DNA of 64,000 bases from a virus (IMGVR_UViG_3300017565_000017:64779-128778); one strand, 5' to 3'. Numbered from the stretch's first letter, positions 16,752-43,131 are shown. Notes: generated from the sequence alone by a model not told the origin. Numbers and translations are program-made.

Positions 16752-16814
16752 TATAATTGTTTTACCGTTTGCAAGGGCAAGCGGCCCTAAACCCCTAACT
16801 GTATAGGCTACCCC
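16752..16814 (+). promoter_or_regulatory. Early promoter -10 plus conserved leader box (CCCTAACTGTATAGGCTACCCC)
   Basis: TATAAT at 16752-57. Box at 16786-16814, ATG at 16817. No SD. Confidence 0.5.
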
Positions 16815-16816
16815 AA

Positions 16817-17530
16817 ATGAATGCTCAAGACCGCGAAAAGCTCCTCTCCCGCATGAAGAAAATCATGGCCCTGGCTCAAAACGCCGGTGCTACGGAAGGG
16901 GAGCGCGAAGCTGCGCTGCATCAGCTCCACAAGCTGATGGCGAAACACAACATTGACCAAGCCACGGTCGAGGGTGTTGACCTTACCAAGAAGGTTGACA
17001 ACATCGAAGGGCACGTCCTGGAAGAACACGAGTTCTACGGTCGTCCGTGGGCCAAGACCATCATCATGGGCGTTTCCAAGATGATGTTCTGCCGCTACTT
17101 CGTGAAGGAATCGGCCAAGAAAAACATGGCGATTCACTGCTTCGTCGGCACTGCCGAAAACGTGGCCGCTTGCGTCATGCTCGCGCAGTTCCTGGTTCAC
17201 GGCGTCAAGGCCGAGGGTGAGCGCGCTGCCAAGGCTCGCAACGAAAATGTCAGCGCCTACCGTCGCGCTTTCGGTACGGGTGCTTCCGGCGCTCTGTACG
17301 ACCGCTGCATCGCTGAAATGCGCAAGCCCCCTGAAGGTGGTAGCACGGCCCTCGTGCTGACCGACGTGTACGCCAACGCGGAGCGCCTCAACGCTCTGGC
17401 TCTCCAGCAGAAGTTCGGTATCAGCCTGCGTACTACCGCCAGCCGTGCCAAGCGCTCGGGTGTCGGCGACGCTCTCGGTGCGGGCCGTGCTCACGGCAAC
17501 GCCATGAACCTCGGCCGCAACCTCGGCTAA
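16817..17530 (+). CDS. DUF2786-family protein
   Basis: N-terminus KKIMALAQNAGATEGEREAALHQLHKLMAKHNI matches the DUF2786 signature. GC3-rich codon usage. Confidence 0.6.
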   Translation: MNAQDREKLLSRMKKIMALAQNAGATEGEREAALHQLHKLMAKHNIDQATVEGVDLTKKVDNIEGHVLEEHEFYGRPWAKTIIMGVSKMMFCRYFVKESAKKNMAIHCFVGTAENVAACVMLAQFLVHGVKAEGERAAKARNENVSAYRRAFGTGASGALYDRCIAEMRKPPEGGSTALVLTDVYANAERLNALALQQKFGISLRTTASRAKRSGVGDALGAGRAHGNAMNLGRNLG

Positions 17531-17575
17531 CCCTTACCCCTAACGAGGCGGGGCGGCACGTCCGCCCCTATTCCC

Positions 17576-17914
17576 ATGAAAATCACACTGCGCGGTATCT
17601 GCGTCGGGATCCTGATTGGACTGATTGCAGTTCGGGTTTATAACGACCAAATCGACTACGAGATCTTTGGATTCTCTATTGTCCTTCTGTCGTTTCTAGC
17701 TGACGGCTGGAGCGCACTGCGTCCGGGTACGCGGGAGTTCTTTGCCGAGCTTCTGTTCCGTTTCGTGCTCACGTTCATCATCAGCGCGTTCATCATGTGG
17801 GTTTCCTCCTTCGTGTTTGACCTGCACTGGAAGCAGATTCTTGCGACAGCGGGTTTGGCGGGCGTTATTGGCACGTTTGGATCCATGTTCTGGGGGTTTG
17901 TGCATCGTGGCTAA
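17576..17914 (+). CDS. Small membrane protein
   Basis: 112 aa, 3-4 predicted TM helices. Confidence 0.5.
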   Translation: MKITLRGICVGILIGLIAVRVYNDQIDYEIFGFSIVLLSFLADGWSALRPGTREFFAELLFRFVLTFIISAFIMWVSSFVFDLHWKQILATAGLAGVIGTFGSMFWGFVHRG

Positions 17915-18163
17915 AGATTCCGGTTCCAAAGTTACCCGAGCGTTCCACCTGTACGTAGGGCACTCTACCTCGGCCGTCGTGTGCCTGCTTCTGTGGGTTG
18001 CGGCTATGGTATGTTTCCCACAGATCCTGGCCCCTTGGATCCACCTTCTGTTCTTCCCCATGGGCTTCTTCATTGGATGCGCCGTTAATGCCCGGAACCT
18101 GTTTTTCCAGGAAGAGCACATCCAGCGCTATAGCCCTTCCGTAACTGATACGAAGTCCTCGTA

Positions 18164-18364
18164 ATGAAAGCCCCGATTTCTGTACTCTACGCCCTGCTCT
18201 TTGGCCTTAGCATCGGCTGGCTCAGCCCGCTGATCATGGTATGGGTCCACGCAGGAGTCCTCAATCCAGAGCTCACTCTCTTCGTCACCATGCTGGCCCT
18301 CTTTTCGGGCTACAAGTTGTTCCGTGAGCTATATTCTCCGCAAGAGGAGTCTGAGGATGCGTAG
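18164..18364 (+). CDS. Small membrane protein
   Basis: 66 aa, two hydrophobic helices. Confidence 0.45.
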   Translation: MKAPISVLYALLFGLSIGWLSPLIMVWVHAGVLNPELTLFVTMLALFSGYKLFRELYSPQEESEDA

Positions 18365-18998
18365 TGATCCGAAGCGGGTTCTCGTACTGCGCCCGGGTCA
18401 AGAAGTGCCGGAAGGCTTCGAGGATGCACAGGACATTGATGTTACGTCTCGTGCGAAGTCTCCGTTGAGCCCTTTCTTGATTGGCGGCACTCACGCTGCG
18501 GACAACTCCTCCAGCCGGGGCGGTGTCTGGTTCAACAACTTTGAGAATATGTGGCAATACTCGAAGGTGTACCGGACGCTCGGCCATGTCCAAGAAGACG
18601 GTATGCCTTCCGAGGATTGGCGCACCTGGATGGAGCTTGGCGCTGCCAAGACAGAGGCCGTGCGATATCCAGCCGGACGTGGTGCGAAGCCGGAGTACCT
18701 GTTCTGGCAGGGTCGCAAACTGAGCTATCTTACCGCACGCAAACTCGTGTACATTCCCAAGTATCTGGGGTGTATACGGGAGAACTCGGAAGCCTACGAT
18801 GCGCTTGGGGGTATGTACAAGATCCTGAAGAAAGAGGGCAAGCTCATTCTGCGAGATTTCGACTGCTACCCGGTTCAAGGTGCCTACGACTGGCAAGCGA
18901 TGCTGGACAATCCATACCGGAAGTTTGGTCACGGACTCGTGCTGGCCCAGATTCTTGAACACGGTTCTATGAACGCATACACGCGCATTATTGTTTAG
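18357..18998 (+). CDS. Hypothetical protein; weak NADAR/YbiA-like resemblance
   Basis: In-frame ATG at 18357 preceded by GAGGAG. SPFLIGG...GVWFNNFENMWQYSKVY loosely resembles the NADAR LSNFY...EHxFQxxKF core. Low confidence. Confidence 0.5.
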   Translation: MRSDPKRVLVLRPGQEVPEGFEDAQDIDVTSRAKSPLSPFLIGGTHAADNSSSRGGVWFNNFENMWQYSKVYRTLGHVQEDGMPSEDWRTWMELGAAKTEAVRYPAGRGAKPEYLFWQGRKLSYLTARKLVYIPKYLGCIRENSEAYDALGGMYKILKKEGKLILRDFDCYPVQGAYDWQAMLDNPYRKFGHGLVLAQILEHGSMNAYTRIIV

Positions 18999-19002
18999 GG
19001 GC

Positions 19003-19066
19003 TTGCACGGCCCCCGTTTTATATGTATAATGCTTGCACGTAAACCCTAACCGTATAGGCTACCCC
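19003..19066 (+). promoter_or_regulatory. sigma70-like promoter (TTGCAC-17-TATAAT) plus conserved leader box
   Basis: -35 at 19003-08, -10 at 19026-31, box aaaccctaaccgtataggctacccc at 19042-66, ATG at 19067. Confidence 0.6.
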
Positions 19067-19378
19067 ATGCAACATACTCTGGATTCCCTGCAAGCGGTTC
19101 TTGACCGTGGCGCTGACCCTCTGACCGAAGCGGCTATCAAGGACGCCATGGCAAAGCTCAAGTCGGTGAACCGCCTGTACGTCGACATGATGCTCAAGCA
19201 CGATGCGTTGCTGACCCAGGAAGCGCAGCGCTTGGACCAGCGGATCTATGCGGAGACGGACCCGCTCGGTGGTGTGCGGTTCTATGCCAACACGGCACAG
19301 GGTCGCATCACTTCGGTGTCGGCCCATATGGTCAAGGCCCAACTGGACCGCCAGTCCGAACTTCAAGGTCAAGCGTGA
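19067..19378 (+). CDS. Hypothetical small protein
   Basis: 103 aa from the ATG directly after the leader box. The track start at 19034 would include the promoter box. Confidence 0.55.
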   Translation: MQHTLDSLQAVLDRGADPLTEAAIKDAMAKLKSVNRLYVDMMLKHDALLTQEAQRLDQRIYAETDPLGGVRFYANTAQGRITSVSAHMVKAQLDRQSELQGQA

Positions 19379-20235
19379 GCACTCAATTCAATTTTATCAC
19401 GGCAGATTACCCGCATGTGTTCAATCATCTGCGCGAGCTGGCCTTGACTCTGCACCACCTGCGTACTGATCAGGTTCTAGACATGCGCCAATCGCGCCGT
19501 TCCTTCCGCCCGAACCGCATGGATTTGCTGGGCTGGAACGCGGAGCGGAAAGGCGATGATCAGGTTGTGTCCGGGCTGGACCCTGAGAACTGGCGGGACG
19601 TGTATTACCCGTCGGCAGTCGGGACTTACCTGCACCGACCTGTTACCGTGGTGGAGCTCCAGGACTCGAGTAACCGAAGCTGCGAGAAGCGCATTGTCTG
19701 GGCGCGTATCGTCCGTCTGCTCGAGGTGTACGCAGACAACCGCTTCGATCTACTGCGCCCGGATGCGCTGAAGATCTTGGAAAGTCCCGTATCTTGCTGG
19801 GCTGCGTGGAACTGGGAAATCAGTTCTATCCCATCCGCTCTGCTTACGATGCAGTCCTATCACACCCATTCTTTCAAGGACCAGCAAATTGGCAAGCCCT
19901 CCGACTTGTACTACGAAGGCCATGTGACAATAGAGCCGGTGTTCGGCCATCGTCTAGAACAGGCTTCGGCTCTAGCTCAACTGTTCGGGTTCCGGATTGC
20001 CAGTCTTCTGATGCAGAAAGATCGTGTAGCTACCCCGGAGCGTAGTGACAAAGACACCTTCATGACGGGCCACAGTAAATACGAGGGCAACCTCACGTCG
20101 CGCATGAAAGCCCTCATCAAGACCCTGCAATACCACAATTTCCAAGTGTGGCGTTACAAGATGGAAGACACCGTCTATGACAGCCGCACCCGTGACCTTT
20201 TCCAGCTCTTGACCCCCAAGAGCCGTAACCCCTGA
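19375..20235 (+). CDS. Hypothetical protein
   Basis: 286 aa. GTG start overlapping the upstream stop (GTGA). Confidence 0.5.
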   Translation: MSTQFNFITADYPHVFNHLRELALTLHHLRTDQVLDMRQSRRSFRPNRMDLLGWNAERKGDDQVVSGLDPENWRDVYYPSAVGTYLHRPVTVVELQDSSNRSCEKRIVWARIVRLLEVYADNRFDLLRPDALKILESPVSCWAAWNWEISSIPSALLTMQSYHTHSFKDQQIGKPSDLYYEGHVTIEPVFGHRLEQASALAQLFGFRIASLLMQKDRVATPERSDKDTFMTGHSKYEGNLTSRMKALIKTLQYHNFQVWRYKMEDTVYDSRTRDLFQLLTPKSRNP

Positions 20236-20251
20236 CCTTACAGGAAACACC

Positions 20252-20800
20252 ATGAGCAACTGCCCCCACATCATCACCATGATGATCGGTATCCCCAACA
20301 GCGGCAAGACGACGCAGGTTTCGGAACTGATCCGCCAGGACATGGTTCCCACCTACAACATCTTCAGCCTGAACCGTCTGCGCCTCGAATTCGCGGCCAA
20401 GAACAAGATCATCGAGCCGGTGCCCGAGCACCAAGAGCCGTCGGCTGAAGACTACGTCACGGCGTTCGAATACTGCTCGGACAACTCCGAGTTCAACGCT
20501 TTCCAGAAGGGCGTCTGGTACGAAATGCTGGAAAAAGCCCAGAACTTCCAAGTGCCGATCTACATGGACAACATGCACCTGATCGCGCGCCACCGCAAGG
20601 CCATGATCCGTGACCTGCAAGGCATGGGCCTGACCGTGCGCGGCGTCTACACGGAAGTCAGCCTGGGCGAAGCCATCAACCGCAACGCCGAAGCCAAGGG
20701 TGTTCCCACCCGCGTCATCGAGCGCGCCTACGCGGACCTGGAAGTGCCGGAAGGTATCGAATTCGACGAATTCGTCCACATCGACACTGAAATGGAATAA
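20252..20800 (+). CDS. P-loop nucleotide/polynucleotide kinase-like protein (AAA_33/zeta-like)
   Basis: Walker A IGIPNSGKTT near the N-terminus, 182 aa. GC3-rich. Confidence 0.55.
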   Translation: MSNCPHIITMMIGIPNSGKTTQVSELIRQDMVPTYNIFSLNRLRLEFAAKNKIIEPVPEHQEPSAEDYVTAFEYCSDNSEFNAFQKGVWYEMLEKAQNFQVPIYMDNMHLIARHRKAMIRDLQGMGLTVRGVYTEVSLGEAINRNAEAKGVPTRVIERAYADLEVPEGIEFDEFVHIDTEME

Positions 20801-20810
20801 GGGGTAGCCC

Positions 20811-20996
20811 ATGAGCAGCCTTTCTCGTTTTGACCGTAATGCCAGACGTGCAGCTCAACAGGCCCGCCGTGAAGGGGAACGGGCACGACGATTGGGGCGG
20901 CTCATGGACTCCAACCCCCATCCTCACCAAACCATCGAGCGCCAGTCGTGGGATACTGGCTGGCGCTTCGAGAACAACAAGTTGACGCTCAAATAG
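20811..20996 (+). CDS. Small basic protein
   Basis: 61 aa, Arg-rich. Confidence 0.4.
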   Translation: MSSLSRFDRNARRAAQQARREGERARRLGRLMDSNPHPHQTIERQSWDTGWRFENNKLTLK

Positions 20997-21020
20997 CGTT
21001 CCAAATTTGTTGTACAGGGC

Positions 21021-21084
21021 TTGCTTAGGGGCTTACCGTGCGCTATAATGGCGTTACCGTAAGCCCCTAACTGTATAGGACCCC
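21021..21084 (+). promoter_or_regulatory. sigma70-like promoter (TTGCTT-17-TATAAT) plus leader box
   Basis: -35 at 21021-26, -10 at 21044-49, box cccctaactgtataggacccc at 21064-84, ATG at 21089. Confidence 0.6.
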
Positions 21085-21088
21085 TACT

Positions 21089-21970
21089 ATGCAAGAGCCC
21101 CAAAACACCCAATGGTATGACCGAGCAGGACGTCCGCTTTCCGTGGAGAAAGATGGAGTCTGCTCCTTTGACATGGCGTATGGTCGCGCGCTCCACATAA
21201 CCTATTCTTACTGCTCCCGCTGTGGCGGTCAGGGTGGTTCCCAAGCATGGGCTCACACTGGATATACGTGCTACAAATGCGGTGGCTCTGGGGGCCGTCA
21301 GCAGCGTATGGCCCCGTGCTATACCAAAGAGCGTCTTGACCAGATGAACAGTCTGGCAGAAGCTAAGGCAGAAGCCAAGCGCGAGAAGGCCCGCCGCGAA
21401 GAAGAGGCCCGCCTGGAGCGTCGCCGTGCCGAATTCAATACATGGCTCCAGGAAGAGCATGTTGACCCGCAAGTTATCATGTGGGCCGAACAGCAGCACG
21501 AATCCAAGTCCAACTTCCTGGCGGATATGTCCCGGAAAGTGCGCGACATGTGGACGTTGTCGGAAGCGCAGTACGCAGCTCTGGTCAAGTGCTACGACCG
21601 CGAAGTAGCCCGCGCCACTCAGTGTGAGAACTCTGAGTTCCTTGCACCCATCGGTGAAAAGCTTGGCCCGGTCAAAGTGACGCTCAAGCGTATTCTGGAT
21701 TGGTCCAAGCCGGATCAGTATCCGCCTATCTACAAGTACATGCACGAGATGGTGACGGACGACAACCAAGTCATCATCTACACGGGTAATTCGCGCCAGA
21801 TGAATTACTCTGTTGGTGCCCAATTCATTGTTCAGGGTAAGGTCAAAGACCACACTGAATACCAGGGTCTTAAACAGACCGTTATTGAACGCCCCACTAC
21901 CCAGGAGATTCCAAATGGCGAGCAAGAAACCGGCGAAGTCGGTCAGCTTTTTCCAGATGAGCAAGGATGA
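21089..21970 (+). CDS. Zinc-ribbon-containing hypothetical protein
   Basis: CSRCGG...CYKCGG motifs, then a charged coiled-coil. 293 aa. Confidence 0.5.
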   Translation: MQEPQNTQWYDRAGRPLSVEKDGVCSFDMAYGRALHITYSYCSRCGGQGGSQAWAHTGYTCYKCGGSGGRQQRMAPCYTKERLDQMNSLAEAKAEAKREKARREEEARLERRRAEFNTWLQEEHVDPQVIMWAEQQHESKSNFLADMSRKVRDMWTLSEAQYAALVKCYDREVARATQCENSEFLAPIGEKLGPVKVTLKRILDWSKPDQYPPIYKYMHEMVTDDNQVIIYTGNSRQMNYSVGAQFIVQGKVKDHTEYQGLKQTVIERPTTQEIPNGEQETGEVGQLFPDEQG

Positions 21971-22586: not shown

Positions 22587-22624
22587 GCCCTAGTTAATGT
22601 AAAACAACATTTAGCGCCCCGGGG

Positions 22625-23306: not shown

Positions 23307-23318
23307 TCGTTGCTGAAG

Positions 23319-23347: not shown

Positions 23348-23367
23348 AAAGACTGGGAGAAATCAAA

Positions 23368-24014: not shown

Positions 24015-24175
24015 GACTATGAGTCATAGACTCTATTCATACGGTTACTGATACATATGTACAGTTACTCCATACGTTATATGTAAAACCACCCTATGTA
24101 AAACCGTTAATATAGGGTATGCTTACAGTGTACGGCATATACATTACACAACCCTAACAAGGTACTACAAACTCC

Positions 24176-26122: not shown

Positions 26123-26129
26123 GAACAGA

Positions 26130-26165
26130 GCCCGACTAGGATCCTAGTCGGGCTTTTGTTTTTGG
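26130..26165 (+). terminator. Rho-independent terminator
   Basis: GCCCGACTAGGA-TCCTAGTCGGGC followed by TTTTGTTTTT. Confidence 0.8.
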
Positions 26166-26168
26166 GGC

Positions 26169-26237
26169 TTGTGCCGGTGCATGCGCGCCTGTATAATGGC
26201 CCTGTAAACCCGTAAACCCTAACCGTATAGGCCCGTT
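26169..26237 (+). promoter_or_regulatory. sigma70-like promoter (TTGTGC-17-TATAAT) plus leader box
   Basis: -35 at 26169-74, -10 at 26192-97, box aaccctaaccgtataggcccgtt, ATG at 26238. Confidence 0.6.
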
Positions 26238-26567
26238 ATGCTACCCCGCGCCCTAGCCCTTACCCTGCTACTACTGCCCGCCCTGGCGGGCGCACAAGCC
26301 AGCTACAGCACCGCTGACCGCGACCGAATGATTATTCAGGCTGCGCAGTCGGCTGTTGCACGACTTGGCCCCAATCCGTATCGCATGTACAGCACCAACT
26401 GGTCACATGAAGAGGACCGTCGTTTGCAGGTCTACGAAGAGGCTATGCGCGTGGAGAGCAACCGTCTGTTCCAACTCCAAGTGAACAAGACATATGCCGC
26501 AGACCGTGCTTCTAAGGAAGCTTTTTTCCAAAAGAATCCGCATCTGCGCCCTGTCAACTCCCGCTGA
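26238..26567 (+). CDS. Small secreted protein (signal peptide)
   Basis: MLPRALALTLLLLPALAGAQA. Confidence 0.55.
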   Translation: MLPRALALTLLLLPALAGAQASYSTADRDRMIIQAAQSAVARLGPNPYRMYSTNWSHEEDRRLQVYEEAMRVESNRLFQLQVNKTYAADRASKEAFFQKNPHLRPVNSR

Positions 26568-28288: not shown

Positions 28289-28363
28289 TTGTGTAAGGTA
28301 CTAGCGCGCTATACCATATTGCGTTAATATATGGCACCGGCCTAACCGTTAGGAACTACCCGC
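28289..28363 (+). promoter_or_regulatory. Weak promoter plus variant leader box (CCTAACCGTTAGGAACTACCC)
   Basis: TTGTGT at 28289, box at 28341-61, ATG at 28364. Confidence 0.35.
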
Positions 28364-28540
28364 ATGAAAATCGCAATTAACGGAAAAGAGCTCATTATCA
28401 ACACGAATGACCGTGGCGAGCTCTGTCTGTATGTTAGCGAATATTCAACGTTTTACGAGCGGATGGAATTACGACCTGCCGTACTGACCGATCTACCCGT
28501 AACCCTCAACGTAGAGGTGAAGAATGACCGTAGTAAATAA
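28364..28540 (+). CDS. Small protein (58 aa, below the ORF-track cutoff)
   Basis: MKIAINGKELIINTNDRGELCLYVSEYSTFYERMELRPAVLTDLPVTLNVEVKNDRSK. Starts directly after the leader box. Its 3' end carries the SD (AGAGGTGA) for the next gene. Confidence 0.5.
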   Translation: MKIAINGKELIINTNDRGELCLYVSEYSTFYERMELRPAVLTDLPVTLNVEVKNDRSK

Positions 28541-30800: not shown

Positions 30801-30860
30801 TTGCGCACCGTTGTTATACACGCTATAATAAGTTTTGCCCTAACCCCAGGCCATTACCCC
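30801..30860 (+). promoter_or_regulatory. sigma70-like promoter (TTGCGC-17-TATAAT) plus leader box variant
   Basis: -35 at 30801-06, -10 at 30824-29, gccctaaccccaggccattacccc, ATG at 30861. Confidence 0.55.
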
Positions 30861-34164: not shown

Positions 34165-35469
34165 ATGAAGATTTTGATCATCGGCAGCGGTTCTATTGGT
34201 AGCGGCATCATCCCGATGCTGTTCAAAGAATTTTCCGATTTGACTTCCGCCGATATCCATGTGATTTCCGCGGAGCCGGAAACTGAAGTCATGCGCGCGT
34301 ACAGTATCAAGGGTACGCATATTAACCTCACGGAAGCCAACTATTACCACGTATTGGACCGCCATCTGCATCCGGGGGTGTTCGTTCTCAACCTATCGGT
34401 TGACGTGAGTTCCGAGGCGGTTCTGGGTCTGTGCCAGAAGAAAGGCGCACACTATCTAGACACGTGCATCGAGCCGTGGGCTGGGGGCTATATCGGCACT
34501 AATGGCGCTCCGATTCCTAACGCCATGTTCCGTCAAAAGATCCTAGCGGCTTCTAACACTTCCGACGCTCGGGAAACCTCAATTCTGGCCTGCGGTGCGA
34601 ACCCGGGTCTGGTGTCGTGCTTTGTCAAGCAAGCACTTCTCAACATCGTTGAAGACCCCGACATGCACATCCCAGCATCCATCCTGCTCGATGGAATGCC
34701 TGCGGTTGCGCGCCATCTAGGTATCCGCACTATCCAGATCGCAGAACGTGACACCCAGGTGTTGGGTCGTCGCCTGAATCCTGGTGAATTTGCGAACACG
34801 TGGTCTGTCGATGGATTCTGCTCGGAGGGCGAACAGTACGCGGAACTTTCCTACGGCAGTCACGAGGACTACAAAGACCTGCGCATCTTTTCCCCGACGC
34901 CAGGTCGCCCGATGGCGGTCCTCCCGAAGCGCGGCTTCGAGCAGAAGGTGCATTCGTACACGCCGACCGGGGGTGAAGACTGGGCCTACATGATTTCCCA
35001 TCATGAAGCCAGTTCGATTGCTGACATGCTGACGTTGCCGGACTATCGTCCCACGGTGTACTACGCTTACCGCCCGGCAGAAGCGGCTGTCCGGAGCATT
35101 GAAAACCATTTGGCTCGCAATTGGGCCGAGCCTAAGTCCAAAACCATCTTCCAAGGTACTGCTGGTTACGATGAGCTCGGTGTCCTGATCATTGCAGACG
35201 GCTTTACGTACTGGTACGGCAGTACCCTAAATACTGCGCAAGCCCGCGCCCTAGTGCCGTATAATGGCCCTACAACGCTACAGGTAACGGCTACCATTGC
35301 CGCCGCCATAAAGCATATTTTGAAAGCGCCGTTCCAAGGCGTAATCGAGGCGGAACAGTTGCCGTTCCATACGATTATGGAACAGGCCCGTCCGTATCTG
35401 GGCCACGTTGCCGGGTATGAAGTGGACTGGAGGCCGGGTTTCCAACTTGAGCAGTTCCTCATCAAATAA
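34165..35469 (+). CDS. Saccharopine-dehydrogenase-family NAD(P)-binding enzyme, homospermidine synthase-like
   Basis: N-terminal Rossmann motif MKILIIGSGSIGSG. 434 aa. Length and architecture fit HSS/carboxynorspermidine dehydrogenase-type enzymes. SD GAAGGAG. Confidence 0.5.
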   Translation: MKILIIGSGSIGSGIIPMLFKEFSDLTSADIHVISAEPETEVMRAYSIKGTHINLTEANYYHVLDRHLHPGVFVLNLSVDVSSEAVLGLCQKKGAHYLDTCIEPWAGGYIGTNGAPIPNAMFRQKILAASNTSDARETSILACGANPGLVSCFVKQALLNIVEDPDMHIPASILLDGMPAVARHLGIRTIQIAERDTQVLGRRLNPGEFANTWSVDGFCSEGEQYAELSYGSHEDYKDLRIFSPTPGRPMAVLPKRGFEQKVHSYTPTGGEDWAYMISHHEASSIADMLTLPDYRPTVYYAYRPAEAAVRSIENHLARNWAEPKSKTIFQGTAGYDELGVLIIADGFTYWYGSTLNTAQARALVPYNGPTTLQVTATIAAAIKHILKAPFQGVIEAEQLPFHTIMEQARPYLGHVAGYEVDWRPGFQLEQFLIK

Positions 35470-35492
35470 GTTTTTCTGGGAGAAGCCGTAAA

Positions 35493-35936
35493 ATGAAAAA
35501 GTCACGTTCCGTGGCGTTAGTCTTGTTGGGTCTGGGTGCTGCTGTTACCCTCAGTGGCTGCGAAGACTCGAAACAGAATGTCAATGCCAAGCGTAATCAG
35601 TACGCCAATCGCGCTGATTGCGTGGCAGATTGGGGCGATAAGGACTGCCCCCGTGAAGCCCAACGCACGAGCGGCGGTGGCTTCATGTACATGGGTCCTC
35701 ACTACTTCTGGTCCGGCTCCAGCCCTATGGTTGTCGGTTCAGACGGTAACGCCCGCGCAGCTTCCGGAACGTATCTCAACCAAGCGGGGGCCACGGCTGC
35801 CACTACCAGCCGCTCCTCTATCGGCTCCGTGTCGAGCGTAAGCTCAGTGAGCTCAAGCTCCATCAGCCGTGCCGCCCCATCTGTGAGTCGTAGCGGCTTT
35901 GGTTCCACTTCCAGTTCCATGTCTTCAGGAGGCTAA
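35493..35936 (+). CDS. DUF1190 (YgiB/YjfM-like) lipoprotein
   Basis: Lipobox LSGC. NRADCVADWGDKDCPREAQ and C-terminal SRSGFGSTSSSMSSGG mirror E. coli YgiB (EDCVAEFGEGQCQQ ... RGGFGE..SRSMGG). Confidence 0.6.
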   Translation: MKKSRSVALVLLGLGAAVTLSGCEDSKQNVNAKRNQYANRADCVADWGDKDCPREAQRTSGGGFMYMGPHYFWSGSSPMVVGSDGNARAASGTYLNQAGATAATTSRSSIGSVSSVSSVSSSSISRAAPSVSRSGFGSTSSSMSSGG

Positions 35937-35937
35937 T

Positions 35938-36306
35938 ATGAGTTGCGAACGCCCTGGATTTTTCGGTTCTATCCTTGACGCGGCTGCTGACGAAGCAGAG
36001 CGCCAGATACAGCTCCTATTCGCGGATAAGCTTCGCGGTACGGGGTTCGATATCTGCATGCACGTATTCGGCCCGTGGTCCACACCCGTGGTCCGTTCCG
36101 TTCACGAGCATGACGTGTGCGCCTCTATCACACGTATCGTCGGCCAAGAACAAGTCTCGCACCGCACGTGCCGGTACTGCTCCCACGAAGAGCACCGTGT
36201 CCAGGCACTGCAAACTCCGGAATGGGTTGACGTGCCGTGGTACGATCGCAACCGCGTGGCGCTCATGGACGAATTCCGCCAGCCCTTGGATGTGAATGCA
36301 AAATGA
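35938..36306 (+). CDS. Cys/His small protein, paralog 2
   Basis: Strong SD CAGGAGG. GFDICMHVFGPWS...HRTCRYCSHEEHRVQAL. Confidence 0.5.
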   Translation: MSCERPGFFGSILDAAADEAERQIQLLFADKLRGTGFDICMHVFGPWSTPVVRSVHEHDVCASITRIVGQEQVSHRTCRYCSHEEHRVQALQTPEWVDVPWYDRNRVALMDEFRQPLDVNAK

Positions 36307-36554
36307 TACGCTGGCTCCGGCTTCTACTACGCTGGATTGGGTTCGATGTGTGTCCGCACACGTACTCCAGATGGGAGGACGAGTACACCCATAGCTATGA
36401 GGTTACGACGCAGGGTGCAATGTTTGACACTTACGGGGAGAGCTCCTCAAAGCCGCATACGCATCTGCGCCAAACTCGTCGCTGTCACGAGTGCTACAAG
36501 CTGGAGATTCGCCATATTAACCTGAAGAAGTCTAAACAGGTGCTAGACCTATGA
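36304..36554 (+). CDS. Cys/His small protein, paralog 3
   Basis: IGFDVCPHTYSRWEDEY...LRQTRRCHECYKLEIRHINLKK. Confidence 0.55.
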
Positions 36555-36799
36555 TCCGTCTGATAAAGCTTTTCCTGAAGGGTCTAGGGTTCGACGTATG
36601 TGCTCACGAGTATTCGGCCTGGAAGGATGAATATGAGACGGGCCTCCGGACAACCCATTACGGTTTGTTCAAGAATACGTATCGCGAAGAGCGTGAGTAT
36701 GTGCGCCTGACCCATATCCGGCAAACTCGTCGGTGCTACACCTGCTCCAACCTTCAGGTTCGTCACATTGACCTTAAGAATCAAGGGATTAATCTCTAA
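36551..36799 (+). CDS. Cys/His small protein, paralog 4
   Basis: LGFDVCAHEYSAWKDEY...IRQTRRCYTCSNLQVRHIDLKN. About 45% identical to paralog 3. Confidence 0.55.
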   Translation: MIRLIKLFLKGLGFDVCAHEYSAWKDEYETGLRTTHYGLFKNTYREEREYVRLTHIRQTRRCYTCSNLQVRHIDLKNQGINL

Positions 36800-36801
36800 C
36801 C

Positions 36802-38001
36802 ATGAAACGCATCGACGTTACCCCGCGTCCCAACCTCGAAGAACGTTTGACCAAACGCGGTCTTTCGTTCTGGGCCTGGGACAACTACTGGCACGAAGGT
36901 GCCGCGTACAAGTTCACCCCCACGCAAATCGACCGCTTGGAGGAGAGTGTGGCTGAGCTCCAGACCATGTGTTTGGCGGCAGCCGAGCATGTAGCGAAAT
37001 CTGATGACCTACTGAAGAAGCTGCGGATTCCGGAGCCCTTCTGGGAGCCGGTGCGTCGTAGCCTTGGCCGCAAGGATTTCTCGCTGTATGGTCGCTTCGA
37101 CCTCGCCTGGGACGGCACCGGCTGGCCCAAGATGCTGGAATACAACGCCGATACTCCTACGTCGCTGCTCGAATCGGCCGTCTGCCAGTGGGATTGGCTG
37201 GAAGACGTGTTTCCAGGGGCCGACCAATTCAACTCTCTGCACGACAAACTGCTGGATCGCTGGACCGAGTTGCGCAAGGGCGGTGTGAAAAAGGTTCACT
37301 TCGCCTCCACCCGCGATGTTGACCAGGAATATTTGGCAACCCTGGAAGGCGAAGCTCGTGAGAAGTATCTTCACGATGAGAGCATCAACGAGGAAGACTG
37401 GGTGTGCTGCCATTACTTGATGGACACCGCTGTTCAGGCGGGTCTGGAAGTTGAATGGCTGGCCGTGCAAGACCTGGGTTACGACGCTAACAACCACGTG
37501 TTCGTTGACCTTCAGGACAACCCCATCGAAGCGCTGTTCAAGCTATACCCGTGGGAATGGCTTATGCGTGAAGAGTTCGGTTCCAAGATCAGCGGTTGCA
37601 AGACTCGCTTTATCGAGCCAATGTGGAAGTCGATCCTCTCCAATAAGGGTCTGCTGGCCGTGCTGTGGGAATTGTATCCGGGCCACCGCCTACTCTTGCC
37701 CGCGTACTTCGAACCGTACAAGCTCGTGTCCTACGCCAAGAAGCCCCTCCTGAGCCGCGAAGGCGCTAACGTTACGCTGGTGGAAAACGGCAAGGAGCTG
37801 GAACGTGGCGCTGGCCTTTACGGGCAAGAAGGTTATGTGTATCAGGGTCTGTGCCAACTCCCGAACTTCGGAGGCCGCTATCCGGTTATCGGCGCGTGGG
37901 TTGTTGGCAACGAGCCTGCCGGTATCTGCATCCGTGAAGACAACAAGCGTGTCACTACCAACATGAGCAACTTCGTTCCTCACCTGTTTACCCCGGAGTA
38001 A
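36802..38001 (+). CDS. Glutathionylspermidine synthase-like (YgiC/YjfC-type) ATP-grasp-related ligase
   Basis: KSILSNKGLLAVLWELYPGHRLLLPAYFEP matches the GspS/YgiC signature (..LSNK.LL..LW.L.P.H..LLP.YF). 399 aa. Confidence 0.7.
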   Translation: MKRIDVTPRPNLEERLTKRGLSFWAWDNYWHEGAAYKFTPTQIDRLEESVAELQTMCLAAAEHVAKSDDLLKKLRIPEPFWEPVRRSLGRKDFSLYGRFDLAWDGTGWPKMLEYNADTPTSLLESAVCQWDWLEDVFPGADQFNSLHDKLLDRWTELRKGGVKKVHFASTRDVDQEYLATLEGEAREKYLHDESINEEDWVCCHYLMDTAVQAGLEVEWLAVQDLGYDANNHVFVDLQDNPIEALFKLYPWEWLMREEFGSKISGCKTRFIEPMWKSILSNKGLLAVLWELYPGHRLLLPAYFEPYKLVSYAKKPLLSREGANVTLVENGKELERGAGLYGQEGYVYQGLCQLPNFGGRYPVIGAWVVGNEPAGICIREDNKRVTTNMSNFVPHLFTPE

Positions 38002-38005
38002 TCCT

Positions 38006-38227
38006 ATGGACATGCTGCCGTATCTTTCACTGCTTCTGGGCCTAGTTTCCTGGCTGCTGGTTCTCAAGAGCCAGTCGATAAATCGCCAGCTCAAGGAACA
38101 CCCGACACAGGAGCTCCTTGATAAATCCCAGCGTATAGTCTACGCTCTGTACGTGGTAATGATGTTCCTCCTGGTCGCCCTGGGGTTCTTCGTATACCGC
38201 CTTGTATTGATAGTGACTGGGGCGTAA
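38006..38227 (+). CDS. Small membrane protein
   Basis: 73 aa, 2 TM. Confidence 0.4.
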   Translation: MDMLPYLSLLLGLVSWLLVLKSQSINRQLKEHPTQELLDKSQRIVYALYVVMMFLLVALGFFVYRLVLIVTGA

Positions 38228-38228
38228 C

Positions 38229-38471
38229 ATGACTATTACGTTCTGGACAATTGCTATCTGCATTCTCTCGGCTATCGCCCTCTCCGTGATGGTCCTGCAA
38301 ATGCGGGCGGATTACTATCTGGAACGCGCCCCTGACACTGAGGAAACGTACCTCAGATTTACCCGGGTTGTGAAGCTGTATCGTCGGGCTATTCAAGCCA
38401 TGTACATATACGTCACAATCCTATTCATCATCGCCGTCATAGACGTGGCGTTCCTCCGCACCCCTACCTGA
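38229..38471 (+). CDS. Small membrane protein
   Basis: 80 aa, 2 TM. Confidence 0.4.
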   Translation: MTITFWTIAICILSAIALSVMVLQMRADYYLERAPDTEETYLRFTRVVKLYRRAIQAMYIYVTILFIIAVIDVAFLRTPT

Positions 38472-38493
38472 ACTTATTCAACCTGGAGTCAAT

Positions 38494-38880
38494 ATGACCG
38501 CATTTCTCAACTTCCTCGCGTACTTCGGCACCGGCCTCGTGGTCCTCATGGTGTACATGGTGGCCTACAACAAGCTGACCCCCTACGATGAATGGAAGGA
38601 AATCAAGGACGGCAACATGGCTGCGGCCCTGGCCTTCGGGGGCTCGATGGTTGGCTTCGTGCTGCCGCTGCTGTCCGCTATCTTCTTCACCCACAGCCTC
38701 ATCGAAATGATCAAGTGGGGCGTTATCACGGGCGTCGTGCAGCTTCTGACCTTCGAGATTGCTCACCGACTGCGTGGCTTCGGCGACTGCGTCAAGAACC
38801 GTAATACGGCGGGCGGTATGTTCCTGGCCCTGCTGTCCATCGCGGTCGGCCTGCTCAACGCTGTGTCGATCTCCTACTGA
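38494..38880 (+). CDS. DUF350 (YjfL-like) membrane protein
   Basis: 128 aa, 4 TM. Composition and architecture match the YjfL family that accompanies YjfC-type ligases. GC3-rich. Confidence 0.5.
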   Translation: MTAFLNFLAYFGTGLVVLMVYMVAYNKLTPYDEWKEIKDGNMAAALAFGGSMVGFVLPLLSAIFFTHSLIEMIKWGVITGVVQLLTFEIAHRLRGFGDCVKNRNTAGGMFLALLSIAVGLLNAVSISY

Positions 38881-39054
38881 GGCCGCTATGTGGACCCTGA
38901 TTATTAGCGTTTACAGCACCTACGGGGTGGGGATCCATTCGATTCCGGGGTTTGCTTCTGAGAAAGCAGCAGAAACTGCCAAGGCGATCCACTCGAAGTC
39001 GCTCACTAACAGCATGCACGTCTGCTACGCAATTGTCCCCATGGGTGATGCGCA

Positions 39055-39384: not shown

Positions 39385-39387
39385 ACT

Positions 39388-39407
39388 GAGGGGGCTTCGG
39401 CCCCCTC
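39388..39407 (+). terminator. Stable hairpin (possible terminator or processing site)
   Basis: GAGGGGGC-TTCG-GCCCCCTC. Weak U-tract. Confidence 0.4.
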
Positions 39408-39424
39408 CTTAACGAATCCCAGTC

Positions 39425-40819
39425 GTGGACTCTGGAGCCATTGTGCCCGATTTTACTTTCTTACATGGATTATCTACCGTAGCTATCGGCGGCCTGATTG
39501 CTGCCGTAGTCGCAGGTTGGAAACAGGTCAAGGGCTTCTTTGCCCAAATTGCTTCCCTAGTGGTAGTGACTGCAAATATCGACAGCCGTATCGCATCTTC
39601 TGTGTACATTCACCTGCGCCAGAAGTATAAGATTGTGCCGTCCGGTATCCACCGTTATGTATCTCGCCACGCTAAAATCAAGGGCGATGCGTTCAACATT
39701 CCGATCCCGTATCATTTGCCCAACTCTACCGCGATTTACGTCAGCAAGCGTGGGGTTCCGCTGATTGTCAGTCACAGCGATTCCATGCAGATTCGAGGTC
39801 TGCGAGGCACCATCAATTTCAAGAAGTTGATTGCACAGGCCACCAATGAAATGCGGGAGCGCAACAACAGCGGGTCCTCCAGGAAAGCCCAACTCAGCAA
39901 CACAAGTCGCTTCCAGGTCTACAAGGTCATGGGCGCTGAGAAGTATGTCGGGGACATGCAGCGCAAGAAGCAAGGCACTCTCAGTGCCTCTGAGGGGGAC
40001 CCTGTTCCGGATTCTATCGACAGTAGCTCGTCTAATATAGGTGTTAATCTGCTGGTCGATAAGTCTTGGATGTTCTCGCAGGACGACTTCGAGCAGGCCT
40101 CCCAGGAAGACCCGTTGCGTGGTCTGTATTTCGAGCCCCACGTTCTGGAACACTTCCAAAAGGCTCGACGCTGGATGGAAATGGGTAAGTGGTATAGCGA
40201 CCGAAACATTCCGTGGCGTCGGGGTTGGCTGCTCCACGGTCCGGGCGGTACGGGTAAATCCAGCATTGCCCGTGGTCTTGCCATCACTCTTGGTATCCCT
40301 GTTTACCAGTTCTATCTTGGGACCCTCAGCGACCAGGAGTTCGCCCAGAGATGGTCAAACATGAGCACCCCGTGCGTAGCGCTCTTCGAAGACTTCGACA
40401 ATATCTTCCATGGTCGTGAGCCTGTTTCCGAGCACACGATGTTGTCTTTCGACACAGTGCTCAACCACATCAGCGGCGTTGACTCCACTGACGGTGTGTT
40501 CCTAGTTGTGACAACCAACTGCCTGGACAAAATCGATCCGGCGATGGGCGTCTCCCACGAAGGGGGCTCCTTGTCTACGCGCCCTGGCCGGATTGACACG
40601 GTTATCGAAGTGGGGCTCATGGACGAGGCGTGCCGCCGTGCGCTTGTCATGAGCATCCTGCGGGACTGGCCGGACCTCGTGGAACACGCAGTCGGCCACA
40701 CTTTCGGTATGACTCCAAGCCAAGTGCAAGAGTATTGCGTGCAGCAAGCCTTCGAGCGTCTGGATCAGGAAGAGAAAGCGCGTCCAAAGGAACATGGCAT
40801 GATTAGCGAAGCTTCCTAG
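39425..40819 (+). CDS. AAA+ ATPase, membrane-anchored (paralog 1)
   Basis: N-terminal TM. Walker A GPGGTGKSS, Walker B VALFEDFDN, and VVTTN..IDPA...RPGRID (sensor/arginine finger). Confidence 0.65.
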   Translation: MDSGAIVPDFTFLHGLSTVAIGGLIAAVVAGWKQVKGFFAQIASLVVVTANIDSRIASSVYIHLRQKYKIVPSGIHRYVSRHAKIKGDAFNIPIPYHLPNSTAIYVSKRGVPLIVSHSDSMQIRGLRGTINFKKLIAQATNEMRERNNSGSSRKAQLSNTSRFQVYKVMGAEKYVGDMQRKKQGTLSASEGDPVPDSIDSSSSNIGVNLLVDKSWMFSQDDFEQASQEDPLRGLYFEPHVLEHFQKARRWMEMGKWYSDRNIPWRRGWLLHGPGGTGKSSIARGLAITLGIPVYQFYLGTLSDQEFAQRWSNMSTPCVALFEDFDNIFHGREPVSEHTMLSFDTVLNHISGVDSTDGVFLVVTTNCLDKIDPAMGVSHEGGSLSTRPGRIDTVIEVGLMDEACRRALVMSILRDWPDLVEHAVGHTFGMTPSQVQEYCVQQAFERLDQEEKARPKEHGMISEAS

Positions 40820-40834
40820 ACCTAAAAACCCGGC

Positions 40835-40899
40835 TTGCTTTTGGGGCCGCTTACGTTATATACTGGCTGGCCCTAAACCCCTACACGTTACCCCGCACC
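40835..40899 (+). promoter_or_regulatory. sigma70-like promoter (TTGCTT-17-TATACT) plus leader box variant
   Basis: ggccctaaacccctacacgttaccccgcacc then ATG at 40900. Confidence 0.5.
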
Positions 40900-41340
40900 A
40901 TGGAAAACCTCGACAACATCCCGGAACGCATCGCCCAGCTTTGCCATGTGGCGCAATTTCCCGGAGATCGCCATCTCTTCCCTGGACTCAACAAAGCCCC
41001 GCTGTCGCAGTACAAACGTGTTCTGGAGCTGGACTTCCACCAGCTTCCGGTCAATGTGCAATGGGAGCTGCGGGGTCGTCCGGGTTTCGCCTTTGACCAG
41101 ATTTTGTCGGTGCGCAGTATTTACTCAGCTTTCTTTGCTGACCCCAACGCTCCGATCAGTGTGCTGATTGACCGCCCTTACCTGATCCTGCAACATGAAC
41201 ACAGCGTTCGTGAGCATGATTTCACCGGCGATCTGTCGGAATATGTTGCTCAACGCAATCTGCGCCTGTACAAGTGGATTGTGGACCAAAAGTTCGATCT
41301 CGGTAGCGTTTCCGATATCTACATTACTACCCGCGTCTAG
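40900..41340 (+). CDS. Hypothetical protein
   Basis: 146 aa. Confidence 0.5.
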   Translation: MENLDNIPERIAQLCHVAQFPGDRHLFPGLNKAPLSQYKRVLELDFHQLPVNVQWELRGRPGFAFDQILSVRSIYSAFFADPNAPISVLIDRPYLILQHEHSVREHDFTGDLSEYVAQRNLRLYKWIVDQKFDLGSVSDIYITTRV

Positions 41341-41366
41341 CGCTGTACCGTAAATAGTTTTATATG

Positions 41367-41390
41367 GCCCCCAACTCGGGGGCTTTTTTT
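41367..41390 (+). terminator. Rho-independent terminator
   Basis: GCCCCC-AACTC-GGGGGC followed by TTTTTTT. Confidence 0.8.
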
Positions 41391-41404
41391 ACGAGGATTC
41401 GTCT

Positions 41405-41650
41405 ATGAAGATTGAAGACTATAAACGGCTAGAATCGGCTGCCCGTGAAGTGTGTCTAGCTAGGGGTCAAAACCCTGATGAGCAAGTAGGTACAGAGCGT
41501 GCTTCTTGGGAAGATGGTCCAACGTACGACGTCTATTACTGTTCCACACGCTGGCGCAACGTAGCTCAAGAGCTTTGGGATTTTGAGGTCAAGGGGCGTG
41601 CTCTGTTTAATCTTCGTGCATACTCAGCAGAAGGTCCGAATGACAAATGA
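41405..41650 (+). CDS. Hypothetical small protein
   Basis: 81 aa. Confidence 0.45.
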   Translation: MKIEDYKRLESAAREVCLARGQNPDEQVGTERASWEDGPTYDVYYCSTRWRNVAQELWDFEVKGRALFNLRAYSAEGPNDK

Positions 41651-41849
41651 CGATGACCCCAGCGGTGGCCTAGATAGCCCGTGCGTGGCCATCTGCTCTA
41701 CACTCTACGACGACATTTGTCGTGGTTGCGGGCGCACTGCTATGGAAGTGGCGGAATGGGTGTTCTATACACCTGAGGAAAAGAAACAGGTCTGGATTCG
41801 GATTAAGTCGCAAGGCTATCCGACTAGAGATTTAGGGAAGAAGTATTGA
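41640..41849 (+). CDS. Small Cys-containing protein
   Basis: MTNDDDPSGGLDSPCVAICSTLYDDICRGCGRTAMEVAEW.. Confidence 0.4.
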   Translation: MTNDDDPSGGLDSPCVAICSTLYDDICRGCGRTAMEVAEWVFYTPEEKKQVWIRIKSQGYPTRDLGKKY

Positions 41850-42109
41850 TGGCTACAGTTACATTCACACATTACGGATGGTTCGGGCTCTGCCCGATCA
41901 TTATTGCAGACCCCGAGGCTGAGACTCCAACGTTCCAGGCCCGCTACAAGTACACCGAGTGGTTGTTTGATTTCTCGGACTGGATGTACGATCGGTGCAA
42001 CGATTTCTTGCTTTGGATGGATAAGGGACATGATCCAGTATTTCCATATAGTGTCAGCGGTGAGCTAGAGAAGCCAATCGTCTTGTCTGCTGATGAAGAA
42101 GAGGACTGA
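41846..42109 (+). CDS. Hypothetical small protein
   Basis: 87 aa. Confidence 0.4.
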   Translation: MMATVTFTHYGWFGLCPIIIADPEAETPTFQARYKYTEWLFDFSDWMYDRCNDFLLWMDKGHDPVFPYSVSGELEKPIVLSADEEED

Positions 42110-42138
42110 ATTTTAGTCTTTAGCCTCCGTAGGAGACT

Positions 42139-42801
42139 GTGATGTTCTGGCCTATTCTGCGCAAGTCCTTTAAGTGGGTTTTTCTTGGACCTCTGGACCT
42201 TATCTTCAATCTGTTCTGCGTCTTATTCGCTAACTGGTGGGTGATTTTCCTAGCCCGCCCCGTTGTCAAGGGAGATTGGCTCTACCACGAGGCCAAGCCT
42301 CAATGGCAAGGTCTTGAGGAAAAGCTTCCCAACTGGTTGTCTTGGTTTGAAACCTTCGATGCGTCTCTAGACGCAGGTTGGATCGGTGGGTACTTCGCTC
42401 CTAAAGACAAGTACAGCAAAGACAACATGCCTAGCTTCTGGCGTCGTAAGTATTATCAGTGGCGTTGGCTCAACCGTAACTCCGGGTACTCGTTCTCCTA
42501 TTATCCGCTTGGAGTTCCTATGGACAAATCCAAGTGGACTATTCATAAATGGGTACGTAATTTCGGCACCGACTCAGACAAGGGTTATCAGCTTTGGATC
42601 GCTTCCTCACCTGAGGGCTACTGGAACATCAACCTCCAGGGTAAGTATGGCACCTACAAGCTCGGTTGGAAAGCGTGGAATTATTGGGATCGCGAGCTCG
42701 GTACATGGTACAAGGGTAATGAGCCCTGGGGTCCAGACTATCGAACTTCTATCGTGATGTCAATCAACCCCTTCAATCGCAAGAAAATTGAGAAGAAGTA
42801 A
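42139..42801 (+). CDS. Membrane-anchored Trp/Tyr-rich hypothetical protein
   Basis: 220 aa, N-terminal TM. Confidence 0.5.
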   Translation: MMFWPILRKSFKWVFLGPLDLIFNLFCVLFANWWVIFLARPVVKGDWLYHEAKPQWQGLEEKLPNWLSWFETFDASLDAGWIGGYFAPKDKYSKDNMPSFWRRKYYQWRWLNRNSGYSFSYYPLGVPMDKSKWTIHKWVRNFGTDSDKGYQLWIASSPEGYWNINLQGKYGTYKLGWKAWNYWDRELGTWYKGNEPWGPDYRTSIVMSINPFNRKKIEKK

Positions 42802-42864
42802 TCACGGTCCGTACGACGTGTTCACAGGCAAAACCGTTTAATTTGTAACAGTGGCGGTTAGCGT

Positions 42865-42893
42865 TTGCATTGCGTGTAAAACGTGCCTATAAT
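42865..42893 (+). promoter_or_regulatory. sigma70-like promoter (TTGCAT-17-TATAAT)
   Basis: -35 at 42865-70, -10 at 42888-93. Confidence 0.55.
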
Positions 42894-43025
42894 TACACCC
42901 ATGCACTAATTAATTAGCGCATAGCTCCGGGGCTACAGTTAACTCCCCCTCTAACTTGGCAGTCAGGGAAGGGTGTTCACAGAACCCCGGAGCACCTTAA
43001 AAAGTTTTTGTAATGCGCTTTAAGT

Positions 43026-43131
43026 TTGTACCGTAGCAAAAAGCGTGTTATAATTGTTTTACGTTAATGCGGCGCGTTAGCGTAATGTTGTAAACGGGCA
43101 ATTGTAGCCCAGAACCTAGGAAACCTACCCC
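43026..43131 (+). promoter_or_regulatory. sigma70-like promoter (TTGTAC-17-TATAAT) plus leader ending CCTAGGAAACCTACCCC
   Basis: -35 at 43026-31, -10 at 43049-54, ATG at 43132. Confidence 0.55.

Follow-up and report, generated by a model that had tools for sequence, protein, structure and literature searches.

A conserved start-associated box preceding a fixed group of genes of an uncultivated giant myovirus

A short sequence that recurs directly in front of several start codons of a phage genome raises the question of whether it is read by an RNA polymerase, by the ribosome or by some other factor. The question is posed here by a stretch of viral DNA of 64,000 nucleotides (IMGVR_UViG_3300017565_000017:64779-128778, hereafter the window), in which the initial annotation had placed a box ending in TATAGG at eight sites between 16752 and 43131, behind sigma-70-like promoters and in front of start codons described as free of Shine-Dalgarno sequences. 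A promoter for a phage RNA polymerase, an enhancer of translation initiation and a processing or protein-binding site defining an early regulon had all been proposed for it. The present analysis shows that the box is genuine: it is a conserved element, associated with start codons and restricted to this phage lineage. Judged from sequence comparison and with middling confidence, it is interpreted as an RNA-level element of the translation-initiation region, which would serve as a translational operator common to a fixed gene set.

Copies of the box and their position relative to start codons

The exact 15-mer CCCTAACYGTATAGG is found four times in the window (16793, 19045, 21065 and 26217; 0.15 expected), always on the plus strand, and each copy ends 6-9 nt 5′ of an ATG. 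A covariance model (CM), built from 28 box copies of the window and its relatives, gave six matches with E <1e-3 in the window (16782, 19034, 20219, 21054, 26206 and 28492), one weak match (28329) and a doubtful one (55611). The strong copies precede the ATGs of the genes g16817, g19067, g20252, g21089, g26238 and g28524. Among the eight sites annotated initially, four hold the exact 15-mer and one (28341) a shortened form, but those at 30840 (E 6.5), 40872 and 43110 (the last two with no CM match) are C-rich leaders only. Two good copies, at 20231 and 28504, both before promoter-less internal genes, had been missed.

All six strong copies lie on the plus strand. The box of g16817, which encodes a DUF2786/DUF7168 protein, spans 16782-16816 and reads CCCTAAACC-CCTA-ACTGTA-TAGG-CTACCCCAA up to the ATG at 16817, with its predicted hairpin at 16794-16807 (33.6 bits, E 8e-7); orthologous copies are present in the related loci L058, L059 and L063/L064. 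The arms CCTA and TAGG enclose ACCGTA in the box of g19067 (103 aa; 19034-19066, hairpin 19046-19059, ATG at 19067 after the 7-nt spacer CTACCCC; 34 bits) and ACTGTA in that of g21089 (21054-21088, hairpin 21066-21079, ATG at 21089; 31.7 bits). The gene g26238, whose product of 109 aa has a signal-peptide-like N-terminus, is preceded by a copy at 26206-26237 (hairpin 26218-26231, ATG at 26238; 36.5 bits). The internal box of the P-loop kinase-like gene g20252 is located at 20219-20251, with CCTGACCTTACAGG at 20231 and the arms and loop CCTG-ACCTTA-CAGG at 20231-20244 (27.6 bits). The box of g28524 (DUF8224, 560 aa) covers 28492-28523, with CCTCAACGTAGAGG at 28504, and has a C-G fourth pair in CCTC-AACGTA-GAGG at 28504-28517 (24 bits); its orthologues in L067 and L068 read CCTC-AATGTA/ATTGTA-GAGG.

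The good copies are all composed of CCTN, a loop ending in TA (6 nt, sometimes 7 and once 5), N′AGG, 6-10 nt and the ATG. N and N′ are complementary in each of the 28 copies (A-T in 22, C-G in three and G-C in three), and none is unpaired. At one orthologous site the change is two-sided: for the fourth pair of the g20252 box, the window and L065 have G-C, and L057, L058 and L059 have A-T. A second unit, (C/G)TAA(A/C)C, is positioned 5′ of CCTN. In the internal copies of L057-L059, the TAA of this unit is the stop codon of the preceding gene, and in the window the gene before g20252 stops at the TGA within CCTGA. The nucleotides between N′AGG and AUG are mostly C-rich. As RNA, the predicted 4-bp hairpin of the box has an energy of -1.0 to -3.9 kcal/mol and is present in the minimum free energy folds of several leaders.

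The box keeps its place relative to the start codon rather than to the promoter. In every copy 6-10 nt separate AGG and ATG, whereas the distance between the -10 element and the box ranges between 6 and 19 nt. Box genes are mostly the first cistrons behind sigma-70-type promoters; however, the copies at 20231 and 28504 precede internal genes without a promoter, and in three orthologous groups the box is not preceded by any promoter. A copy just past the window's right end (L070, position 848) is ~390 nt away from the nearest promoter but 7 nt from its ATG. All copies are in the sense of the gene, and neither the window's structural module (1-15763) nor the structural locus L071 gave a match in the CM search. 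Because the position follows the start codon and three groups lack a promoter, the box seems to be an element of the translation-initiation region that would act in the mRNA.

The AGG of the box is placed at Shine-Dalgarno spacing in all copies (6-10 nt, within the usual 5-10 nt). Canonical copies have this AGG only, which is short of the usual minimum of 4-5 nt of complementarity, and form an anti-Shine-Dalgarno duplex of -2.4 kcal/mol, compared with a mean of -5.6 for the other genes. The initial description of these starts as devoid of a Shine-Dalgarno sequence is only approximately correct, as the box contains this core. At g28524, GAGGTGA is a full Shine-Dalgarno sequence (GAGGUGAAGA AUG in the mRNA, GAGGTGAAGA-ATG in the DNA; -11.7 kcal/mol). 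In L063, the AGG is extended to AGGUGAU (UAGGUGAUUU AUG, in the DNA TAGGTGATTT-ATG).

Conservation among relatives and restriction to one lineage

Syntenic relatives were reached through homologues of g26582, g18357 and g35493, and consist of the loci L057, L058, L059 with L067, L063/L064, L065 and L068. The proteins of L057, for which identity was measured, are 27-81% identical to those of the window. In all these loci the box is located before the same orthologous genes, i.e., those of g16817, g19067, g20252, g21089, g26238 and g28524, and the existence of a defined regulon, as initially proposed, is thereby supported. The CM found 22 copies in the relatives, all in gene sense, and no match in three unrelated phages or in one structural-module locus.

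The six-genome alignment of the intergenic region before g19067 shows the degree of this conservation. The longest invariant run is the nine consecutive columns CCGTATAGG of the box, which exceeds the promoter hexamers in length. The other invariant columns are the TTG of the -35 element, the TATA.T of the -10 element and the ATG, and the promoter spacer has diverged freely. As far as the aligned sequences indicate, the box is under purifying selection.

Outside this lineage, the box was not encountered. The 15-mer gave 37 single chance matches in IMG/VR and no contig with multiple copies, and in 185,579 bacterial genomes the box is not present as a repeated element, with zero matches to a 19-base pattern. 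The bacterial matches to the 17-mer CCCTAACCGTATAGGCC were rejected as a coincidence of codon choice: almost all of the 39 are located in one conserved coding sequence (GPNRIGQ, context VLGSGPNRIGQGIEFDY), mostly of Bacteroidota, and they include Mucilaginibacter and Chitinophagales. This coding sequence is presumably carB. At the gathering score, Rfam detected no cis-regulatory family in the window, but only 22 tRNA matches.

Candidate modes of action

In the mRNA, the element would have the layout (C/G)UAA(A/C)C(C), CCUN, a loop of 6-7 nt ending in UA, N′AGG, 6-10 nt and AUG. The AGG would provide a minimal Shine-Dalgarno core at normal spacing, and CCUN, as a mimic of the anti-Shine-Dalgarno sequence, would pair with N′AGG to form a 4-bp hairpin of marginal stability. 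Since loop and flanks are conserved and the stem is weak, recognition by a factor appears more plausible than simple occlusion, and the recognition of a start-linked element by a factor leads to the proposal of a translational operator for the fixed gene set. The trans-acting factor, most likely an RNA-binding protein encoded by the phage, would recognise the hairpin together with the conserved loop and flanks, and would switch the translation of g16817, g19067, g20252, g21089, g26238, g28524 and their orthologues together, by either repression or activation.

Several points weigh against this proposal. Neither an RNA-binding protein nor a RegA homologue (PF01818) was found among the ~50 window proteins scanned. 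The hairpin is weak, with -3.9 kcal/mol at best and -1.0 at the other extreme, and RNAalifold produced no consensus structure from the 28 copies. Only one of the four stem pairs varies, through about three independent events, and two of the variant copies came from a search that required complementarity. The same symmetry is also expected from a DNA palindrome. Additionally, CCCUAA(A/C)C modules are found in leaders without a 3′ arm (30838 and 40871), so that the 5′ half may have a function of its own. Finally, the mechanism is derived from sequence evidence. When the box genes and the genes next to them were scanned with Pfam and PHROGs, no RNA-binding or regulatory domain was detected, and a search of the window for an antisense partner of the box found none. 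Pairing of the box with 16S rRNA (helix 45, the 530 loop and helix 44, compared by eye) was rejected, as the matches of 6-8 nt are at chance level and the host rRNA was not identified.

The symmetry may be read in DNA instead. In this case, the 14-bp dyad CCTN-N6-N′AGG would be bound by a dimeric phage repressor and would block RNA polymerase before the gene, in the manner of the oriented stoperators of mycobacteriophage L5, which are cited as the transcriptional counterpart of start-associated sequences (PMC3203893). The half-sites are 10 bp apart from centre to centre, the symmetry is found in all copies, and many of them are located 10-35 bp 3′ of sigma-70-type promoters. Such an operator is nevertheless unlikely: a single genome (L057) has spacers of 6 and 7 nt and one variant with 5 nt, a variation that a rigid dimer tolerates poorly; the position is locked to the ATG at Shine-Dalgarno spacing even in promoter-distal and internal copies; the varying position changes in a complementary way and is not fixed like a contacted base; and the promoters already carry another repeat, TGTTTTAC, which could serve transcriptional control separately from the box. 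A promoter for a T7-type single-subunit polymerase of the phage, or for a phage-modified host polymerase, would start transcripts at the GG of TATAGG or, in the case of leaderless mRNA, at the ATG. GTATAGG does resemble positions -5 to +2 of the T7, SP6 and K11 promoters, although nothing beyond the sequence itself was found to connect it with this family; the peak of conservation 5′ of the GG, with its fall thereafter, and the 6-10 nt from motif to ATG, which also fit the distance of a -10 element from the start, would be compatible with a promoter. The probability assigned to it is nonetheless minimal. Single-subunit RNA polymerases are larger than 800 aa, and the largest open reading frame of the window has 598 aa. 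No RNA-polymerase family (PF00940) was detected in Pfam scans of the window or recorded in ~100 kb of related loci, a test that covered about a quarter of the genome. Moreover, the structural module and L071 are without the box, and good copies with TACAGG or TAGAGG alter the TATA (-2/-3), each with a complementary change 10 nt upstream. In L063 the AGG becomes AGGUGAU. The T expected at -7 of a sigma-70 -10 element is missing from TATAGG, which was for this reason also rejected as such an element.

It is distinctly unlikely that the box has no dedicated function, i.e., that a weak ribosome-binding site and its leader were copied along with promoter cassettes and homogenised by recombination, like the PeSLs of T4-type phages. 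Composite cassettes of terminator, promoter and leader with GGGGC...GCCCC stems do precede many small genes of unknown function, L057 has two paralogous copies with the same derived 7-nt loop, and PeSLs have such an architecture and mediate shuffling (PMC2839356). However, the box is invariant where the adjacent promoter spacers have diverged freely, orthologous copies keep their own variants (e.g., ACUGUA at g16817 in four lineages), and internal copies are found without a promoter cassette. A site of RNA processing or stability, at which a ribonuclease of host or phage would cut beside the Shine-Dalgarno core or a C-rich leader would load Rho, has a slim probability. T4 RegB cuts GGAG in early mRNAs, and the sense orientation of the box, its place in the leaders of probably early genes and its overlap with the core would suit such cleavage, as the C-rich and G-poor leaders would suit Rho. 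On the other hand, no nuclease candidate was identified, neither cleavage nor Rho loading needs a fixed spacing to the AUG, and the leaders, at 25-40 nt, are too short for a typical Rho site.

Of the options raised by the initial annotation, the phage polymerase promoter is thus disfavoured by the sizes of the open reading frames, the structural module devoid of the box and the TATA variants with complementary changes in the 5′ arm. The fixed distance to the ATG, the internal copies without promoter and the extension of the AGG in a relative favour translation initiation or protein binding, in line with the proposed translational operator.

Neighbouring features, the phage and its known counterparts

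Besides the strong copies, the shortened variant CCTAACCGTTAGG at 28341 (28329-28363, plus strand; 14.8 bits, E 0.09) precedes the small open reading frame g28364 (58 aa). This frame (28364-28540, plus strand) is not called in L067 and L068, where the leader CCCTAACAGGAACC (L067 3560-3657) contains no ATG and continues up to the conserved box before the DUF8224 gene; g28364 may be lineage-specific or not real. The doubtful copy CCTG-CACGTA-CAGG-TGAGTG at 55623 (55611-55642, plus strand; 13.4 bits, E 0.22) is located before a questionable open reading frame between tRNA genes of the opposite strand. The three C-rich leaders, all on the plus strand, have in common only the module CCCTAA(A/C)C, a (T)ACCCC that directly precedes the ATG and a strong lack of G. 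That of g30861 (30838-30860; 7.9 bits, E 6.5) reads CCCTAACCCCAGGCCATTACCCC before the ATG and contains CCCTAAC and TACCCC modules but not the hairpin box. The leader of g40900 (40871-40899), CCCTAAACCCCTACACGTTACCCCGCACC followed by the ATG, has no AGG, an anti-Shine-Dalgarno pairing of +0.7 kcal/mol and no CM match; the relatives have tandem CCCTAAAC units. The leader of the AAA ATPase gene g43132 (43110-43131), CCTAGGAAACCTACCCC and then the ATG, is not a box and has no CM match; its AGGA can pair with a downstream CCTA. The product of the box gene g21089 (21089-21970, plus strand) contains two CxxCxGxG motifs of the DnaJ zinc-finger type, CSRCGGQG and CYKCGGSG.

The TTGC/TATAAT promoters were confirmed where they had been annotated: TTGY-N19-TATAAT occurs eight times in the window against 0.11 expected, including 19003, 21021, 26169 and 30801. 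The sigma-70-type promoter TTGCAC-N17-TATAAT at 19003-19031 (plus strand) belongs to the class (GGG)CTTGY-N17-(G)YTATAAT, whose members are also found at 21021, 26169, 30801, 42865, 43026 and, on the minus strand, 49790 and 54330. Promoters of this class in the tRNA region are not followed by a box. The promoter of g19067 has a second TTGCAC 3′ of its -10 element, at a distance of only 14 nt from TATAGG. At g21089, an inverted repeat of 12-23 bp (TTAGGGGCTTAC / GTAAGCCCCTAA, 21025-21071, plus strand; z -2.9 to -6.4) surrounds the -10 element of the promoter. The -35 element falls in its 5′ arm and the -10 element in its loop, and the 3′ arm takes in the box, overlapping the CCCCTAA. The repeat has -37 to -48 kcal/mol as RNA, and in its counterparts (L057 3879-3945, L058 12751-12817 and L059 12736-12803) the sequence is changed and the complementarity kept. 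Folding would be expected only in transcripts that read through the promoter, or in DNA as a cruciform. Pairing between the box and the upstream promoter region is significant only at the promoters of g21089 and, partly, g16817, and was rejected as a general explanation of the box on account of this limitation.

The repeat TGTTTTAC (GTAAAAC on the other strand) occurs six times against 1.44 expected, at 16758, 22635 and 43055 and, on the minus strand, at 22599, 45452 and 62472. Several copies adjoin promoters or sit inside them, often directly after the -10 element (TATAATTGTTTTAC), and looser GTAAAAC copies are found at 24085-24110, 42880 and 59600. The repeat is a possible transcriptional operator. 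At 42865-43016 (plus strand), a promoter TTGCAT-N17-TATAAT is followed by ~110 nt without an open reading frame. The stretch folds as a long stem (CUCCGGGG...CCCCGGAG; -38.5 kcal/mol, z -2.9) with a T-run at its end and no Rfam match, and is therefore a candidate small RNA. In L070, ~390 nt of non-coding sequence (444-868) separate the promoter TATAATTGTTTTAA from the box gene at 869.

The window is organised in three parts. The minus-strand genes of 1-15763 encode tail and baseplate proteins (the N-terminus of a tail fibre, a baseplate wedge, an SLT transglycosylase and a tail tube). The plus-strand block of 16000-45200 contains ~45 genes, mostly small and of unknown function, together with two AAA ATPases, an SPFH protein, a saccharopine-dehydrogenase-like protein and a glutathionylspermidine-synthase homologue. 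Judging by its promoters and by the genes it carries, this block is probably early. The last part (46500-64000) holds 23 tRNA genes on the minus strand, which span 17 kb (46545-63920) and are interspersed with sigma-70-type promoters of the TTGY/TATAAT class (e.g., 62484, 59619, 57354 and 54330) and short doubtful open reading frames. Within the plus-strand block, a cluster at 34165-38880, kept in L067 and L068, combines the saccharopine-dehydrogenase-like gene, DUF1190, the glutathionylspermidine-synthase homologue (E 5e-136) and DUF350, and its gene content suggests polyamine-related metabolism or modification in the phage.

In 50,697 phage records, no match was found by megablast with 20 kb of the window or by tblastn with g26582. 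In tblastn against phage records, a structural protein found counterparts of only 36-40% identity, in the giant phages BcepSauron, Motura, phiRSL1 and BCSR5; in Motura there is no synteny around the matched structural gene and no CM match. In IMG/VR, g26582 has no relative, and the relatives found for the AAA ATPase g43132 belong to other phages, in which the box is missing. Near-identical and diverged relatives were found in metagenome assemblies only, on contigs of up to 249-257 kb, and hence the window is part of an uncultivated giant myovirus, a distant kin of phiRSL1, BcepSauron and Motura. The phage is probably lytic and its host probably Gram-negative.

A ribosome modulation factor (RMF) homologue of 61 aa is encoded at 20811-20996 (plus strand), in the same operon as g20252 (PF04957, 32.6 bits against a cut-off of 27.9), and its orthologues in L056, L059 and L065 show the same Pfam match. 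It has the motif PxQT..R..W..GWR in common with RMF of E. coli. As RMF is typically found in Gammaproteobacteria, its presence is a hint at the phage host. A literature search found no paper on a phage-encoded RMF. The homologue is a possible functional partner of the box. A two-part takeover system, in which it would mask the 16S anti-Shine-Dalgarno sequence and shut off Shine-Dalgarno-dependent host translation, with the box giving phage mRNAs an anti-Shine-Dalgarno-independent or RMF-resistant initiation, is a highly speculative scenario to which hardly any probability is attached. Together, the box and the RMF homologue point to the control of host ribosomes in a barely known phage lineage.

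Among known systems, T7-family promoters have ~23 conserved bp (-17 to +6, TATA occupying -4 to -1 and a G the +1 position) and are located before middle and late genes without a fixed relation to the start codon. They share TATAGG with most box copies; on the contrary, the box is absent from late genes and locked 6-10 nt from the ATG, and no polymerase gene was seen in the window and the related loci. L5 stoperators are oriented and intergenic. Similarly to the box, the stoperators of L5 and Cluster A phages occur as many copies of an oriented site of 13-15 bp in short intergenic gaps, but they are asymmetric DNA sites of a prophage repressor, and their distance from the start codon is not fixed. 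In T4-type phages, the translational operators (the RegA targets and the gp43 and gp32 operators) are cis elements overlapping the ribosome-binding sites of several early mRNAs, an arrangement that would allow joint control in the case of the box as well. The gp43 operator, a short hairpin that adjoins or overlaps the Shine-Dalgarno sequence, resembles the box hairpin. RegA sites differ in being A/U-rich and unstructured, whereas a hairpin is predicted for the box, and the RegA family (PF01818) is not represented among the window proteins scanned. The PeSL cassettes of T4-type phages (Arbiol et al. 2010, PMC2839356) have, like the box cassettes, a strong sigma-70-type promoter, an overlapping G/C stem-loop and the ribosome-binding site that serves a small gene without known function, and PeSL-like combinations of promoter and stem-loop are present at 18998-19031, 21021-21071 and 26127-26197. 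PeSLs are defined by promoter and terminator with no conserved leader; the box follows the start codon and also occurs without a promoter (20231, 28504 and L070 848).

By analogy, the closest counterpart of the box is provided by the Start-Associated Sequences (SAS) of Cluster K mycobacteriophages, described by Pope et al. 2011 (PMC3203893), whose function was still untested in 2025 (PMC12699233). Both are short, asymmetric and highly conserved, and are located a few bases 5′ of the start codons of ~10-20 genes, in a single orientation, in the non-structural part of the genome only and before the same gene families across relatives. Both combine a Shine-Dalgarno core with conserved positions unable to pair with 16S rRNA, and sometimes include the upstream stop codon. 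However, their sequences are unrelated (GGGATAGGAGCCC against CCUN-loop-N′AGG), and the SAS consensus is not matched by the box. SAS have a strong AGGAG, whereas the box has AGG only and, in addition, a covarying 4-bp stem. Moreover, SAS are found in temperate actinobacteriophages, and the box in a probably lytic giant myovirus whose host is probably Gram-negative. Since they differ in sequence, Shine-Dalgarno strength, stem and phage lineage, the box is considered an analogue of SAS and not a member. Start-codon-linked boxes have been known in that one mycobacteriophage group since 2011, and the finding that a giant phage has an unrelated box of like behaviour suggests that phages have repeatedly turned to shared leader elements to run a post-transcriptional regulon. 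The system described here is a simple one of this kind, with a 4-bp stem, one covarying pair, a Shine-Dalgarno core in the 3′ arm, a defined gene set and diverged natural variants.

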